This document shows positions 1,244 to 56,133 of a stretch of 64,000 nucleotides of DNA, in pieces. The stretch is taken from NCBI GenBank assembly GCA_944362765.1, contig CALVTP010000004.1, forward strand, positions 2,250 through 66,249, read 5' to 3'. A program made the translations under genes and the position numbers. The stretch's first letter is position 1. Every line of letters begins with the position of its first letter. Origin of the DNA: an uncultured Clostridia bacterium. Lineage in GTDB: Bacteria; Bacillota; Clostridia; Christensenellales; DTU072. The notes under the pieces are model-generated. The model searched no databases. It saw only the letters and a program-made list of their open reading frames with translations, and was not told where the DNA came from.

Positions 1244-2092
1244 ATGACCGATTACACCGATAAGATCCTGGACGGCAGAGCGGTAGCCAAACACATGGAG
1301 GCGGAAATTGCCCGAAAAATCGAACAGGAATTGGCGTCGGGCGCCGTAAGACCTGTGCTCGCTACTATAATAGTAGGGGAAAATCCTTCTTCCGTCACCT
1401 ACGTCAGGATGAAAGGGAACGCCTGTAAACGGGTCGGAATAGAACCGAGAAAAGTGGAACTTCCCGAAAACACCACTACTGAGGAACTCCTTTCCGTCAT
1501 CGACTCCCTGAACGCCGATCCCGACGTCTACGGCATACTCCTTCAGCATCCCGTACCGCGTTCCATCGACGAGCGCGCCTGCTTCGACAGAATTGCTCCC
1601 GAAAAGGACGTCGACGGCGTAGGCGTCAATTCTCTCGGGAAGACCGCTTTGGGGCTCCCCGGCTACCGCGCAGCCACCGCCAAAGCCATCATGAATATCC
1701 TGGAGTACTATAAAATCCCCCTTCAAGGAAAAGAAGCCGTCGTCATCGGCAGATCCCCGATACTCGGAAAGCCCGTTGCAATGCTGTTGTTGAATGCCGA
1801 TTGCACCGTCACCGTCACCCACACCAAAACGGTGGATATCGATAAAGTCGTCCGCCGAGCCGACATCGTCGTTGCCGCCTGCGGCGTGCCGCGATTCGTC
1901 AGACCCGAGTGGATAAAGCCCGGCGCAGTCGTCATAGACGCCGGATATAACGCGGGGAATGTCGGCGATGTCGATGAGGGAGCTTTCGAGAATGCGTCGT
2001 TGATGACTCCCGTACCCGGAGGAGTCGGTCCTGTCACAATCGCTTCTTTAATGCAGCAAACATTATTTTCTTTCTGCGATAGAAATAAATAG
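1244..2092 (+). CDS. folD: bifunctional methylenetetrahydrofolate dehydrogenase/cyclohydrolase
   Basis: YVRMKGNAC, GILLQHP, PEKDVDG, VIGRSPILGKP, TPVPGGVGPVT. RBS GGAGG 1234-1238 precedes ATG 1244. Confidence 0.95.
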   Translation: MTDYTDKILDGRAVAKHMEAEIARKIEQELASGAVRPVLATIIVGENPSSVTYVRMKGNACKRVGIEPRKVELPENTTTEELLSVIDSLNADPDVYGILLQHPVPRSIDERACFDRIAPEKDVDGVGVNSLGKTALGLPGYRAATAKAIMNILEYYKIPLQGKEAVVIGRSPILGKPVAMLLLNADCTVTVTHTKTVDIDKVVRRADIVVAACGVPRFVRPEWIKPGAVVIDAGYNAGNVGDVDEGAFENASLMTPVPGGVGPVTIASLMQQTLFSFCDRNK

Positions 2093-3304
2093 AGAAACGT
2101 TATTGCTCGCAAAATCGTTTATTTATAAAAAGCTTGTACCCCGTACGGGCTTTTTTCATAAGGAAAGACCTGATGCAGAAAGAAAAATGTTTGCTGCATG
2201 ACCCGCGTATCGGAACATATTTCACGGCACTTTCGGGCGAAAGAAACAAGTTTCCCGCAAGGGCTCCCTTGATTGTATGTCGATACTAATCGGCGGGAGT
2301 TTCGCCCGAAACCGCAGTCATTGATGCCTCCCGAGGCATAATTGCCTGCTTCGCCGCAAACTAACGCAATCCCGACATCAGTCTGTTTAAACAGCTTTTG
2401 CCTTTTGCTTGCCCCGATCCGCTCCGTACCCCGTACTTTACACGTTCGTCAACATATCGACGACTGTGTGTGATTTATATTGAGAGTTTGGTCGGTTGTA
2501 ACTTCTTTCTGCAAGAGAAATAAATAGAGAAACGTTATTGCACGCAAAGACGATATTGTGTAAAAAAGTTCGTACCCCGTACGAGCTTTTTTCATAAGGA
2601 AAAATATATGCAGAAAGAAAAATGTTTGCTGCATAAGCAAAGGACAGGAGCGAAGCGACTGTCCGTTTTGGAGCCAACTCTTATAATACCGAAGAGAAGG
2701 AAGAGATATAGTCTTAGAAAGATAGATTTTGCGGGTTATTAAAAATTTGTACATCAATTTTGCGGGGTCGTTATAAAACAACTTATACTATAAATTTAAG
2801 CGTAACAATGTTGACTATCGTGTAAAGTACGGGATACGGAGCGGATCGGGGCAAGCAAAAGGAATATAAGACGTTGGAGCAAGCATGAGCCTTGTTTGCG
2901 TTAGTTTGCGGCGAAGCAACCGGCGGAGGCGATAAAGCCTCTACCGGTTGCGGTTTCGGGCGAAATTGGCGAAGGGCTGTATCGACATACGCTCCGAGGC
3001 AACTCCCGTAGGGAGGAAACTTGTTTCTTTCGCCCGAAAGCGCCGTGAAATATGCCCCAAGCCGCGGCTATATAATTTTCTTCCCGCTCTATCCCTTCCT
3101 TATTGAAAAAGCTTATGCGTGCGTACAAGCTTTTCCATAAGGTTTTTCTTTGCGAGATATTAAAGTCCTCATACTCTAACTTTGCGGGAAGAAAATTATA
3201 AAAAATCGGTTGTAACTTCTTTCTGCAAGAGAAATAAATAGAGAAACGTTATTGCTCGCAAAAACGACATTGTGTAAAAAAGTTCGCCCGTTCGGGCGAA
3301 CTTT
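2051..3304. repeat. cluster 1 of modular palindromic repeats (modules X, P, Q, S, R), between convergent folD and sialidase
   Basis: X copies at 2066-2186, 2503-2619, 3071-3200 (inverted) and 3217-3304 (partial). P/Q at 2205-2456 (reverse) and 2808-3058 (forward). R at 2641-2734. All modules recur at 53379-56044. Confidence 0.92.
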
Positions 3305-51938: not shown

Positions 51939-52023
51939 AACAGGTTTCCGAAACTTCGGAAAAGGGAACCCTAAACAGCATTTAACATATACCTGCGCTG
52001 CAAGGCGCCGGGTGGAGGAGAGT

Positions 52024-53385
52024 ATGTGTAAACGTAAAAAATTGACCAGGGCAGAGAGACTCAGAAGAGAATTGGTCGAAGACCACATCAAGACCAGGCG
52101 CGAAATGTTTGAAGACAGAGCCCGGCTGAACAGGCACGTGTTCCGGTACGGCGCGCCGCCTCCCGGCTCGGTGCTGTATGACGAGCATCACGATATGTCG
52201 GCGGCAAACGGCGTCTTCGTGAACGGCAGACAGAAGGATGCGCTTACGGTAATACGTCCCTCCGGCAGGGGTTATGAAGACATCGGAACGGGAGCCTACA
52301 ACACCGAAAAACCGGATTTTTATCGTGTGGCTCTGGCAGGGCGTCCCTACGAACCGGTCTTCCCGACCGCGGAGTCGAAGAAGTTCTTCATCGGCTGCAT
52401 TAAAAGGGCGCTGCCGCTCTTTCCGATAGAGACGGAAAGCTATTCGATTCTCGCGAATTCGGCGTATTTTGTCTTTGCGTCGTACGACCAAACAAGGATA
52501 AGTCTGCAGCGCTTCGTTTCGTTGGTTATCGAAACTTATGCCGACTATTACAACGAGGCTTTCGGGCATTCGGGTACTCCGTTCAGGGGGAGACCCGAAT
52601 TGAAAAAGCTGGATAAGCTCGAAGAGATTGCCGACCAGATAACCTTGGTTCAAAGGCAGCCGATAGTGCGCGGACACCGCCCGGACTATCCCTTCTCTTC
52701 GATAGGCGAAGGCGAGGGCGGACTGACAAGCACAACCGCGTTCAACGATCGCTTCGGCGCCGCAGGCAAGAAGGCGTTGCAGGAGGCAAGTACCGAGGAG
52801 TATTCCAAGCTTCACGCCGTCGACCTTTCTACCAGGCTGTTCGGTTTGAATCCCCGCCTCACCGAAGTAATCGAGGAAACGCTTATCGATTACGGCTGCT
52901 TTACCAAGCGCGCAATGCCCAATTTCCTCATGCCTAAGGTCGTTGCCGAAGTCAACGAGCGCTCCGGAGCCTCCTTCAAAAAGATTTCGCGGAAAATGGG
53001 CGGCGGCTGGCGCACCAGGTATGAGCTTCTGGTCAAAACCATTTGCGAATTGATTATCGAGTCGAAGCGCACGTTCGACTACGCCTGGCGCACTTTGCAG
53101 GTGGAAAAGTACCAAAAACGCCCCGTCGCAATCGACGTTGCCGAGGAGCTTTTTGATCGCCTCGGCTACTCGATAGACCAAATCTTCCAAATGATGGGTT
53201 TTGCTTATTGCGCCGTCATCAACGGCACCGTCCAATACTATAATGAAGATCTCCTAGTTCGTTTGATAAAGGACTACGCCTTAGAGCACAATTGCCCCGT
53301 CACGAAGGTTATAGAGTTGTTCGGCATCCGTAACTCCCACGAAGATCCCCAAAGGGTACTGCGCGTCTCTTCTTATTTTATGTAA
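52024..53385 (+). CDS. catalytically degenerate Y1 HUH (IS200/RAYT-like) transposase-fold protein with tandem HTH-like repeats
   Basis: Manual alignment to the RAYT pattern over 52318-52704. NHxH reads NSAY (52456-52467), YNxxxxRxGHLFQGR reads YNEAFGHSGTPFRGR, RYIHxNP reads TLVQRQP, and DYxWSS reads DYPFSS. RBS GGAGG precedes ATG 52024. Confidence 0.75.
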   Translation: MCKRKKLTRAERLRRELVEDHIKTRREMFEDRARLNRHVFRYGAPPPGSVLYDEHHDMSAANGVFVNGRQKDALTVIRPSGRGYEDIGTGAYNTEKPDFYRVALAGRPYEPVFPTAESKKFFIGCIKRALPLFPIETESYSILANSAYFVFASYDQTRISLQRFVSLVIETYADYYNEAFGHSGTPFRGRPELKKLDKLEEIADQITLVQRQPIVRGHRPDYPFSSIGEGEGGLTSTTAFNDRFGAAGKKALQEASTEEYSKLHAVDLSTRLFGLNPRLTEVIEETLIDYGCFTKRAMPNFLMPKVVAEVNERSGASFKKISRKMGGGWRTRYELLVKTICELIIESKRTFDYAWRTLQVEKYQKRPVAIDVAEELFDRLGYSIDQIFQMMGFAYCAVINGTVQYYNEDLLVRLIKDYALEHNCPVTKVIELFGIRNSHEDPQRVLRVSSYFM

Positions 53386-53937
53386 TTTTCTTCCCGCAAG
53401 ATTAAAGTTAGAGAACTTTAATTGCTCGCTTGAACAAAGCCTTATGGAAAAGTTCGTACCCCGTACGAGCTTTTTTCATAAGGAAGGATTAATTGCGGGA
53501 AGAAAATTACATACCCGCGGCTTGGGGCATATTTCACGGCGCTTTCGGGCAGGACAGGAGCGAAGCGACTGTCCGTTTTGGAGCCAACTCTTATAATACC
53601 GAAGAGAAGGAAGAGATATCGTCTTAGAAAGATAGATTTTGCGGCGGAGTGACGAAATGAGAGAGCGGCATACGACGTATGCCGCGAAAGATATTTCTAT
53701 ACTCCGCCACAAAAGATAATTTGTAAGGCGATAGAAATTTCTTCGAAGCGGTATTATTTTGATTAAAGTGGGGTACTATAAGCCAATATAGAGACAGCAT
53801 AGGGCATTATTCAAACAAGCTTTAGTTGAAGAAGCTCTTACAAGAAGAAATATTATTTATTGAATCGGTATGCTATAATTTCCGCATGAAAACAAATATA
53901 AATCTGAAAATTAATTCAAAAAACTCAGCAAAAACTA

Positions 53938-53966
53938 TTGCAATTTATCCCCAATTATGATATAAT
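53938..53966 (+). promoter_or_regulatory. sigmaA promoter P1 with no downstream ORF
   Basis: TTGCAA, 17 bp, TG-a-TATAAT, followed by TATAGGGGA. Confidence 0.75.
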
Positions 53967-54517
53967 TATAGGGGACGGATACGGATAATCGATAAGCTCT
54001 CGTTCCGTCGGCTCGAAGGGTGTTTGCCCTTGGGGCAAACACTTGGGCTACGCACTTTTGCTACCACAAAAGTGCGCGCCCGCGCTCGCTCGAATCGTGG
54101 CAGAGTCGTTAATATCGTGGCAGTTTTACATCACAAGGTAGTCGCTTCGCTTCGATTAGACTAGACCCACCCAACCGCCCACAAGTTTGCCGCTATGCGG
54201 GATAGGAATATTAATATTAGTATACGCATACCGCTATCCCCTTTCGCGTTCTCATGGCGATAACATCACACAAGGTTGCCGCTACGCGGATGATGGGGAA
54301 TATATAAGCTATAATTTGTTTTAACGCATTACGATATTCTTTCAATTCGCTTATATACTGGCGATATTACATTTCAATGTGTTTCTTCGCTCCGATATGA
54401 TTTAACTATATAAGCATATGGAATATTATTGATATAACAAATCATTTTAATTATTTAATTTCAGCAGGAAATTAAATATAAAATCGAAAATTATATCAAA
54501 TAATTTAACAAAAAGTA

Positions 54518-54546
54518 TTGCATTTTTAGGCATAATGTGATATAAT
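54518..54546 (+). promoter_or_regulatory. sigmaA promoter P2, paralog of P1
   Basis: TTGCAT, 17 bp, TG-a-TATAAT, followed by TTAAGGGGA; 580 bp downstream of P1. Confidence 0.75.
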
Positions 54547-54644
54547 TTAAGGGGATAGGGTTGCGATTACCGCCGAGGGGCGGAAGGTTTGGTGTGCGCA
54601 CTTTGCCGGGCTAAGCTGCGCGGCGGGTGTCTGCTCGAATCGTG

Positions 54645-54918
54645 GCAGAGTCGTGAGTATCGTGGCGGTTTTACGGCGTTGTTTGTGAAGTAAGGCAGAG
54701 TGGTGGGTATCATGGCGGTTTTATATTTTTGTTCAAATCATAGCTAAGTTTTTAATATCCTGGCAATCTTACGGCGCTATTGTTGTAATAAGTCATAGTC
54801 GTAAGTATCGTAGCTGTTTTACGGCTTTTTCGGTAAGATACAGCATGGTCGTAATAAGCATGGCGTTCTTATTATCTTTTAAATCTTTGCGTAGTCGTGA
54901 TACATTTAGCAATTCTAC
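54645..54918 (+). repeat. degenerate ~50-bp tandem array, about six units
   Basis: Core TATCGTGGC variants start at 54658, 54708, 54756, 54806, 54856 and ~54902. Confidence 0.7.
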
Positions 54919-56133
54919 ATCACAAGGTGGTCGCTTTGTTCCGAGAAGACTAGACCCACCCAACCGCCCACAAGGTTGCCGCTGCGCGGGATAGGAATAT
55001 TAATATCAGGATACGCATATCGTTATTCCGCTTTCGCATTCTCATAACTACATCTTTCCACAAGGTTGCCGCTGCGCGGATTGGAAATATAAAATAGTCA
55101 TGCTGTTATTCTGTATTTCCATTACAGCAGTTTTCCTCAAGGTTCCCGCTTCGCGGATAAGTGAATGGAAAATAGGTAATTAGTTCAAGTACTCCTATCG
55201 GTGAAGCCTGCTTTACCGTTTATTATAGCAAATTTAATATATTTATAATACCCGGCTATATTTCAATAATACCGCTTCGAAGAAATTTCTATCGCCTTAA
55301 AAATTATCTTTTGTGGCGGAGTATAGAAATATCTTTCGCGGCATACGTCGTATGCCGCTCTCTCATTTCGTCACTCCGCCGCAAAATCTATCTTTCTAAG
55401 ACGATATCTCTTCCTTCTCTTCGGTATTATAAGAGTTGGCTCCAAAACGGACAGTTGCTTCGCTCCTGTCCTGCTACGCGGGTATAATTTTCTTCCCGCA
55501 TCAATAGCTCCTTATGAAAAAAGTCCGTACGGGGTACGAACTTTTCCATAAGGGTTTGTTTTAACGAGCAATAAAAGTACTCTTACTTAAATCTTGCGGG
55601 AAGGGCTACAACCGACCAAACTCTCACTATAAAATACAGCCGTTGAGATGTAGACGAGCGTGTAAACTGTGAGATACGGAGCGGATTGGGGCAAGCAAAA
55701 GACAAAAGCTGTTTGAGTAGACTAAAGTCGGGATTGCGTTAGTTTGCGGCGAAGCAACCGGCGGAGGCGATGAAGCCTCTACCGGTTGCGATTTCGTGCG
55801 AAATTGGCGAAGGGCTGTATCGACATACGCTCCGAGGCAACTCCCGAAGGGAGGGAACTTGTTCCTTTCGCTCGAAAGCGCCGTGAAATATGCCCCTAGA
55901 CGCGGGTATACTATAATTTTCTTCCCGCATTAATAACTCCTTATGAAAAAAGTCCGCACGGGTGGCGAACTTTTTTATAAGGGTCTGTTCTCGCGAGCAA
56001 TTATAGTTCTCTTACTTAAATTTCGCGGGAAGAAAATTATAGTAAAATATATATTATATATACGCGCGCGTATGATAGAATGAGATACGGAGAAGTCTGC
56101 CCAAAACTTCTCTCAACTCATTCAGAGGTAAGT

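Follow-up and report, generated by a model that had tools for sequence, protein, structure and literature searches.

Inverted copies of host codons in the right arm of a stop-codon-anchored repeat family of a chicken-gut Clostridia genome

Introduction

We have analysed a window of 64,000 nucleotides from an uncultured Clostridia bacterium of the chicken gut (contig CALVTP010000004.1 of assembly GCA_944362765.1, or C4:2250-66249 of the genome, here called G000), and in particular the 3' end of its folD gene, which is followed by an array of non-coding repeats named X, Y, V and linker. The genome is a repeat-rich metagenome-assembled genome (MAG) of 68 contigs and 1.71 Mb, with a completeness of 92%. 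A previous reading of the window, made from its sequence alone, had proposed that the ends of X are extended by locus-specific inverted copies of the flanking DNA, which at folD include coding sequence. At folD and at many other genes, the right arm of X does carry such inverted copies; they run from the host gene to the element, two allelic states are found at folD, and changes in the two arms across the family show the same polarity. We infer that the copying step is a template switch during replication or repair, and that the longer stem is of consequence at the 3' end of the mRNA.

Results and discussion

The folD locus and its repeat array

The folD coding sequence occupies 1244-2092 on the plus strand as an open reading frame (ORF) matching the Pfam families THF_DHG_CYH and THF_DHG_CYH_C, the latter match extending to residue 277, and it is native up to the TAG stop at 2090-2092. 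Behind it lies X, a repeat of ~125 nt in which a left arm (TAATTTTCTTCCCGC) is followed by a small hairpin, a central terminator-like hairpin and a right arm (GCGGGAAGAAAATTA). At folD, the segment 2051-2077 (plus strand) occupies the register held in other copies by the 14-nt X left arm (AATTTTCTTCCCGC). According to the sequence and the tails of relatives, this left arm of the long stem consists of the native folD codons MQQTLFSFC and is the source of the copy. The last five folD codons, the stop and the interior of the first copy, X1, follow at 2078-2174 (plus strand; recognised by the nhmmer X model, sequence and fold), and the interior contains a terminator-like hairpin with a T-run at 2127-2156 as well as a CATAAGG motif. 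The right arm with a 13-nt extension then lies at 2175-2199 (plus strand). Both in the genome and in contigs of three other runs this segment is an inverted copy of folD codons: the arm reads GCAGAAAG in place of GCGGGAAG, and the extension is ATGTTTGCTGCAT.

Further downstream, a Y module of ~262 nt lies at 2201-2459 on the minus strand (nhmmer Y model), that is, the strand of Y that folds better faces folD in convergent orientation, with its 3' end directly at the extension. It is followed by a linker (...GGTCGGTTGTAAC) at 2460-2502 (plus strand), a left flank that recurs at internal X copies throughout the genome, and by such an internal copy, X2, at 2503-2634 (plus strand; sequence and repeats). 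A V-type non-coding module (…GGACAGGAGCGAAGCG…; 2635-2807, unstranded) comes next, as it does behind many X copies; a promoter scan gave one minus-strand match there (2814-2787, through V towards X2), not above the shuffled expectation. The array continues with a second Y module in inverted orientation (2808-3069, plus strand; nhmmer Y model and repeats), a full-arm X copy at 3071-3200 (minus strand; repeats and flanks) with a TAT/ATA extension, and a partial internal copy, X3, at 3206-3304 (plus strand; sequence and repeats).

The right arm at folD is an inverted copy of folD codons

The two halves of the folD stem, 2051-2077 (ATGCAGCAAACATTATTTTCTTTCTGC) and 2175-2199 (GCAGAAAGAAAAATGTTTGCTGCAT), are reverse complements apart from a 2-nt (TA/AT) bulge on the left, exactly at the coordinates that the sequence-only reading had given. 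The match covers 25 of 27 nt, and its outer 17-nt part was recovered by a repeat search of the window. MQQT of FolD is indeed encoded by 2051-2062, inside the ORF 1244-2092. The same 25-mer had been reported to recur at 2610-2634, and actually a 27-mer, ATGCAGAAAGAAAAATGTTTGCTGCAT, is identical at 2608-2634, where it forms the right arm and extension of X2. This orphan copy would have arisen by duplication of the gene-proximal unit. It is also present in runs X4 and X6, and in run X4 it carries three extra A-run bases, which bring its length nearer to the perfect complement.

In the 1.71-Mb genome, TGTTTGCTGCAT occurs three times, in all cases at the folD locus, and it is therefore not a constant part of X. 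The other circumstance that would have spoken against host origin, namely its absence from folD alleles of empty sites, was not encountered either: these alleles hold ATGCAGCAAAC(A/G), as ATGCAGCAAACG in the relative G010 and as ATACAACAAACG in the relative G007. A transcript reading through the array had also been expected to fold back over the last folD codons. The predicted folding of the RNA 2040-2210 agrees with this, since a 26-bp outer helix would close over the last 14 folD codons, with -58.2 kcal/mol against a shuffle mean of -30.8 (z -7.6).

X-free relatives give the direction of copying

The closest relatives without X are G007 and G010, whose FolD proteins are 90% and 89% identical to ours, respectively. 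At their empty folD site, folD is followed by a 150-215-nt spacer with a terminator and then by a convergent sialidase gene. Their FolD tails end in ...IQQTLFSFCKRNK and ...MQQTMLSFLKRN before the stop, respectively, while more distant relatives have ...QTVESFLDKE before the stop. Our tail, LFSFCDRNK-stop, is orthologous to LFSFCKRNK-stop of G007 and MLSFLKRN-stop of G010. As the same tail exists in relatives free of X, 2051-2092 including the apparent left arm is native folD, and it is the right arm that is the copy. The view that the element itself supplies the left end at folD thus has to be given up: the left arm in its entirety, as well as the tail FSFC(D/K)RNK-stop, belongs to the gene.

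The same has been observed beyond folD. We recovered orthologous gene ends in G007 and G010 with a concatenated query, and in 12 other genes the left half of the extension corresponds to the native last codons in G007 or G010. Conserved last codons include ...GATATGTATT, ...GAATTGAAAT and ...ATCGAGTGGGAAT, each running into AA, the first of them being the same in both relatives; in addition, our ACGATAGAGTGGGAGT before AA corresponds to ACTATCGAGTGGGAAT in G007, and our TATACAATAATAT before AA to TATACCGTCATAT in G010. Since the left half is coding in relatives without X, the direction from host to element that had been proposed is borne out. We have also considered whether the folD tail founded the family or was a target with an exceptional likeness to X, and have rejected this idea, as 14% of ORF tails score as well as the G007 tail.

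These empty sites bear directly on whether palindromes that were already there, e.g. native terminator stems, could have received X at their centre, so that both halves would be target DNA. The native terminators of the relatives do lie just downstream of the same stops, as this idea would have it. However, no inverted copy follows the stop in the G007 and G010 orthologues of the 12 genes or at their folD, and neither pre-existing palindromic targets nor a pre-formed guide is therefore tenable. The right half is moreover located between X and Y, within the array and not at its far end. We thus consider such an origin, contradicted by the empty sites, extremely improbable.

Native terminators of X-free relatives were also compared with X (L005, L006, L007, L010, L033, and L034). 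They often have the form ...TTATGAAAAAG-hairpin-CTTTTTTCATAAGG and resemble the X core, and a type of terminator characteristic of the lineage may thus have given rise to the centre of X.

Two folD alleles circulate in strains

Strain alleles were read from Logan contigs of public runs, which drop variants and carry no strand. In run X5, a 153-nt contig corresponds to window 2042-2174 with two differences (2078 G>A and 2080 T>G), which restore TGC AAG AGA, that is CKR, the G007-type tail. The contig continues with TGCGGGAAGAAAATTATACC, which is the family-consensus right arm and the baseline junction, unconverted and unextended. The converted and extended allele, on the other hand, is found without gaps in run X3 (2136-2232), in run X8 (2081-2199, no differences), and in run X17 (2068-2244, two differences), where it stands behind a linker. 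The alleles differ by two arm substitutions and the 13-nt insertion, as one block. As the same folD-X junction is known in both states, the conversion is separable from the presence of X. From the K codon and the family consensus, the unconverted form would be the ancestral one.

The structure of the array keeps further traces of this tail. The segment 2503-2527 of X2 is a fossil of the ancestral folD tail (TGC AAG AGA AAT AAA TAG, or CKRNK-stop), K-type as in G007, and 3217-3241 of X3 is a second one. In a contig of the RNA run X28, folD tail letters and an X3-type copy are directly contiguous, and the make-up of the array varies between samples.

It may be asked whether the pattern is an assembly or chimera artefact of the MAG, which is fragmented and rich in repeats, and several public runs have no contigs across window 2188-2211. 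The gap-free contigs of runs X3, X8, and X17 show that the folD extension is not an assembly artefact; the copy in X2 is seen in runs X4 and X6, and the pattern occurs at dozens of loci, so that this explanation is hardly credible at all. At a second polymorphic locus, C57:4364 with a 13-nt extension, the unitigs break within X k-mers common to several copies.

Extensions across the genome

We have collected X and Y loci by an iterated nhmmer search of the whole genome, which gave 129 X loci and 97 Y hits. The statistics of extensions are based on the 69 full-arm X copies (arms of 14 nt), and the null was derived by permutation, pairing the left flank of one copy with the right flanks of other copies. 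A perfect extension beyond the arms of at least 4 nt is present in 42% of the copies, while the null gives 6%. This proportion is 30% (null 2%) for at least 5 nt and 10% (null 0.5%) for at least 8 nt, and the longest perfect extension measures 16 nt. Of the full-arm copies, 37 stand behind a co-oriented ORF of 80 codons or more; 24 of these have an extension of at least 4 nt by hand tally, and 11 have 2 nt or less.

In every case, the complementary segment differs from locus to locus. The extension has been inserted between the arm GAAAATT and the AT-ACCCGCG start of Y, both of which are constant, and many extensions terminate in AT or ATA, which fits realignment by microhomology. That the flank is duplicated in inverted and not in direct orientation, as had been claimed, agrees with our inspection: the X flanks are inverted copies, and by eye, though not by a systematic scan, no direct repeats were seen at the inspected flanks of X and of the composite at 53379-56044.

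One possibility is that the inverted copy is made each time by the integration itself, through hairpin-primed repair or a microhomology-mediated replicative jump. This agrees with the 24 of 37 gene-anchored copies that carry an extension, and with left junctions lying on TAA, TAAT or TATTTTC microhomologies. Furthermore, internal copies in the arrays on C44, C17, and C34 as well as X2 keep an extension matching the host gene of their array, and the copy thus often predates array growth. However, the folD-X junction is also known with a consensus, unextended right arm; the lengths vary from 0 to 16 nt with none preferred, and 11 of the 37 anchored copies have 2 nt or less; and some inherited extensions disagree with the local flank. 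Duplication coupled to insertion is therefore unlikely in our view. The proposal of the sequence-only reading, inverted duplication by template switching or hairpin priming, is supported, probably in its template-switch part; given the unextended allele of run X5, the copy looks post-insertional and not obligatory at insertion.

Side by side with these, the spacer ATTTTAT is found behind X at three genes (C60:3306, C41:12194, and C1:137 of G000), two of which match it for 4 nt only. The X copies at C60 and C41 have identical right halves and different left halves. This sharing suggests frequent ectopic gene conversion of a unit made of right half, spacer and Y. In addition, a further recurrent module, ...TCTATCGCCCCAGAAATTATCTTTTTTTAT, borders many right-end X copies on their outer arm (e.g. 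C18:3461, C60:4269, C2:7248, and C17:6005), which means that some apparently terminal copies border another repeat and not host DNA.

The two arms change together, mostly from left to right

Within the arms, we have counted 26 compensated double changes, compared with 2.1 in shuffles (maximum 11 in 1000), and a left arm that deviates from the consensus is almost always matched by a compensating right arm. The uncompensated changes are unequally distributed, with 4 on the left only and 20 on the right only, as would be expected if the left arm serves as template for the right one.

Covariation of this kind could also result from stepwise compensatory evolution, where selection for a long RNA stem would fix point mutations singly. 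Such selection would account for the stems being kept on the mRNA-sense strand with G-U pairs tolerated, and for arms that covary. But the insertions reach 16 nt and are perfect complements of unrelated coding sequences, and the folD alleles differ by a clustered block instead of scattered changes. A stepwise history is very unlikely on these grounds.

X and Y belong to an undescribed repeat system

Every X copy has a central G+C-rich hairpin and a T-run, as in intrinsic terminators, and the long central hairpin is flanked by CCTTATGAAAAAG and CTTTTTTCATAAGG. X never occurs alone: a short spacer of variable sequence separates its right arm from the constant (A)TACCCGCG start of a Y or V module. 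An array generally runs from the host through a full-arm X, a spacer and Y on the opposite strand to a linker of 39 nt and an internal X, whose left arm has 9 nt, and then continues in this manner. Many clusters have an outward-facing full-arm copy at either end, and arrays are scattered at about 50 gene ends.

The position of X relative to the host gene is precise. In 28 of the 37 gene-adjacent copies, the stop codon TAA is composed of the last host T and the first AA of X. Of the other 9 copies, one has the stop 5 nt upstream of X, and in the rest it is found within X, at 18-26 nt. Comparison with the orthologues in G007 and G010 shows that X begins at the native stop position, and the junctions have 3-7 nt in common with X (TAA, TAAT, TAATT, or TATTTTC). 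At three loci of G000 (C31:210, C5:47508, and C35:13385), X is joined within the coding tail and not on the stop. At C31 the junction is a native TATTTTC, and X-encoded residues replace the C-terminus (WYYF-RDDEKAD-stop in G010, WYYF-LPAI-stop here).

Both modules show constraint on one strand. In X, the structure is constrained on the mRNA-sense strand, with 113 G-U against 18 A-C pairs. For Y, RNAalifold gives -80.7 kcal/mol on one strand compared with -47.0 on the other, the better strand being convergent with the host gene; there are 158 G-U against 22 A-C pairs, and 15 pairs covary (at least two Watson-Crick types). In the window, Y lies at 2201-2459 (minus), 2808-3069 (plus), and 55645-55907 (plus); genome-wide it has 27 full copies, and it shows clear compensatory stem changes, e.g. 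GCAGGCAATGATGCC...GGCATCATTGCCTGC versus GCAACCGGCGGAGGC...GCCTCTACCGGTTGC. Y sequence is present in metatranscriptome contigs, although the contigs of RNA runs lack strand and end information. Judged by these patterns, Y has the appearance of a structured RNA that is so far undescribed and lies convergent with host genes.

Searches for relatives of the two modules were negative. Rfam, at gathering and at permissive thresholds, gave nothing credible for X or Y. The exact X arm pattern was not found in 30-31 relatives, and a degenerate pattern run over 185,579 species gave scattered single chance hits and no other species with multiple hits. BLAST of Y against 200 genomes of the order found no match outside G000, and hidden Markov models of X and Y applied to the loci of relatives gave weak matches to terminator-like cores only. 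X is thus the gene-proximal module of a lineage-specific, undescribed non-coding repeat system composed of X, Y, V and linker.

The order of the modules raises a functional possibility, namely that the copy is maintained as an address tag. Y/V transcripts would then end in a sense copy of host codons, stop and arm, and the gene-specific 3' segment of this non-coding RNA might serve as a guide, as a decoy or in forming an R-loop. The strand-specific structure of Y with its 3' end abutting the extension, the coverage of Y by contigs of RNA runs, the polar copying from left to right, and the constraint of X on the mRNA-sense strand are all consistent with it. Yet no associated protein and no reverse transcriptase were found, the sole Y1 transposase has ends unrelated to X, the X arm pattern and Y were absent outside G000 from the relatives and genomes searched, and many copies have an absent or very short extension. 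The direction and 3' ends of Y/V transcripts are presumed here, as the contigs are strandless. We regard such a tag as quite improbable. In a broader form, the copying would be a polar, element-specific 'writing' of the host 3' end into the array, upstream of the terminator of a convergent Y/V RNA, which is distinctly unlikely as well. If it were true, the copy would be a gene-specific address for regulation, array maintenance or the targeting of new gene ends, and X a self-addressing, stop-codon-anchored non-coding module.

A template switch as the probable copying step

Based on the above analyses, the explanation we favour is that, once X is present, its right arm is made anew on host codons by quasipalindrome template-switch synthesis, and that the copy is later multiplied as the unit is duplicated; this is probably, though by no means certainly, what has happened. 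The alternatives of insertion-coupled duplication, address tag and stepwise evolution are less well supported. X is a long imperfect palindrome with 14-nt arms ~100 nt apart, and is thus prone to intramolecular template switching. During DNA synthesis, the fresh right arm would pair with the left arm of the same strand, and the polymerase would copy outward into the DNA on the left of X, that is, the last host codons. The strand would then realign on the normal template at a short AT/ATA junction before Y. The outcome would be a reverse-complement insertion of 1-16 nt between right arm and Y, with mismatches in the arm overwritten simultaneously. Only left-to-right events would survive, because the left side is protein-coding and under purifying selection; a polarity intrinsic to the copying mechanism is also possible.

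The features expected from template switching fit what has been observed, i.e., an exact inverted copy contiguous with the stem, change as a block, frequent AT/ATA return overlap and variable length. Template switching between inverted-repeat arms homogenises and expands them (PMC13100816, PMC8604942, PMC3820800, PMC7202029, PMC8794818), and single switching events have been proposed both to create RNA stems and to maintain them, for instance as a 'stem extended by an insertion in one stem half' (PMC8794818). A route through cDNA has been rejected: no reverse transcriptase domain (RVT_1, PF00078) was found in the genome, which argues against it.

For folD, we infer a history of four steps. X would first have come to lie behind the folD stop without a left arm of its own, with TAG fused to AGAAAC of the interior, as in the allele of run X5; the folD codons TTTTCTTTCTGC would have stood in the arm register and paired with GCGGGAAGAAAA via two G-T pairs. 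A template switch would then have rewritten the right arm, by two compensatory G-to-A changes, and added 13 nt. In the third step the proximal unit would have been duplicated, so that X2 (2503-2527) and X3 (3217-3241) retain TGCAAGAGAAATAAATAG, encoding CKRNK-stop, and X2 also the extension. Finally, K of the functional tail would have changed to D.

Several points weigh against this explanation. The exact anchoring of X on stop codons in 28 of 37 copies is not accounted for by a template-switch model, and internal X copies with 9-bp stems carry no such extensions. Some extensions are common to several loci and match the local flank in part, as ATTTTAT does at three loci, which requires inheritance or gene conversion besides local copying. 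The copy at folD is an imperfect complement, and its 2-nt bulge needs a misaligned switch, a later slippage or a second event. The right arm of the allele in run X5 could have been reset by ectopic gene conversion from another X copy. Finally, template switching at X is read from patterns in the DNA.

Comparison with known systems

Quasipalindrome template-switch mutations (TSMs) are known from the Ripley model, from reporters in E. coli and yeast, and from the work on 'TSM' of Löytynoja and colleagues (PMC7202029, PMC3820800, PMC8794818, PMC13100816). As at X, an imperfect inverted repeat becomes longer and more perfect, the newly made sequence is reverse-complementary to the opposite arm together with its flank, substitutions and an insertion are clustered in one block, and 'before' and 'after' alleles both exist. 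The differences are that dozens of members of one repeat family are affected here, that the arms stand ~100 nt apart with a branched interior, that the donor is coding sequence including the stop codon, and that the transfer is strongly one-directional. What we observe is probably a variant form of a known mutational process, here acting on an undescribed stop-codon-anchored repeat system.

Repeats of the REP/BIME/REPIN, ERIC and SPRITE types resemble X as high-copy, terminator-like imperfect palindromes of ~100-130 nt downstream of genes, which cluster with other motifs in clusters that vary between strains. X differs from them since it starts exactly on the stop, has the orientation of the gene and is always followed by a Y/V-type module. 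To our knowledge, host-templated stem extensions have not been described for the REP, ERIC and SPRITE families, and a literature search found none. No active RAYT with X-like ends was found, the PF01797 matches being of IS200 type and not flanked by X, and the ORF 52012-53385 beside an X copy has no Pfam match.

MITE and Correia elements share with X the terminal inverted repeats, the many copies, and sites that are filled here and empty in related species. The flanks of X, however, are inverted copies with no direct target-site duplication by eye, and X never occurs alone. A transposase with X-like ends was not found among Y1_Tnp (PF01797) and RVT_1 (PF00078) proteins, the families searched; other transposase families were not covered. 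The IS200 TnpA was rejected as the mobiliser of X, as the ends of its element are hairpins unrelated to X. Its gene is intact at C34:35-391, the start of that contig; a second tnpA copy at C7:7728-8068, interrupted by a stop, closely follows the end of an EF-Tu-like gene, and an X copy comes ~660 nt further downstream.

Integron attC arrays likewise have ~125-nt imperfect palindromes in one orientation that separate short cassettes, with structure kept more than sequence and a first site unlike the internal sites. In contrast to attC, the X arms (TAATTTTCTTCCCGC and GCGGGAAGAAAATTA) have no RYYYAAC/GTTRRRY core sites, the cassettes of X arrays are non-coding repeats, and the arrays lie at about 50 gene ends. 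P nucleotides, which result from off-centre opening of hairpins in V(D)J joining and hAT excision footprints, are short inverted flank duplications templated on a folded-back strand as well; they abut their source directly, whereas in X the entire element of 100-125 nt stands between source and copy. In guide-bearing elements (group II intron EBS/IBS pairing, IS110 bridge RNA, and IS200/605 reRNA), the guide is constant within a family, while the X segment is locus-specific. As for a partner of such an element, the genome contains no RVT_1, and IS110 and TnpB families were not searched.

Other X copies in the window

The self-complementary extensions that had been quoted for three other copies are all present, TAT/ATA at 3071 being the one in the folD array. 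A full-arm copy with TATGT/ACATA lies at 53379-53513 (plus strand), where its first bases give the TAA stop of the ORF 52012-53385. It bounds a composite of 2.7 kb together with the full-arm copy at the far end, 55909-56044 (minus strand), whose extension TACTAT/ATAGTA is copied from non-coding flank. An internal copy at 55483-55607 (minus strand; nhmmer and flanks) has a short left arm joined to a linker.

Between these inverted copies, the region 53900-55200 holds two strong promoter-like sites, TTGCAA-17-TATAAT at ~53940 and TTGCAT...TATAAT at ~54520, as well as repeated CACAAGGTTGCCGCTGCGCGG motifs. There is also a degenerate array at 54640-54930 with a period of ~55-60 nt, built on GTCGTGAGTATCGTGGCGGTTTTAC-like units.

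Implications

The X family would offer a natural, replicated record of one mutational mechanism, with dozens of independent events in a single genome, each of which would create or lengthen a long stem in one step and overwrite mismatches. Since the 'before' and 'after' alleles of folD both circulate in chicken-gut metagenomes, the origin and upkeep of long paired stems can be tested in bacteria. A right arm that mirrors the host flank is a diagnostic for the X system and provides a means of ordering events within arrays. For the host genes, coding sequence including the stop would be drawn into a predicted 20-30-bp helix at the mRNA 3' end, which likely affects the termination of translation or transcription and the decay of the mRNA.

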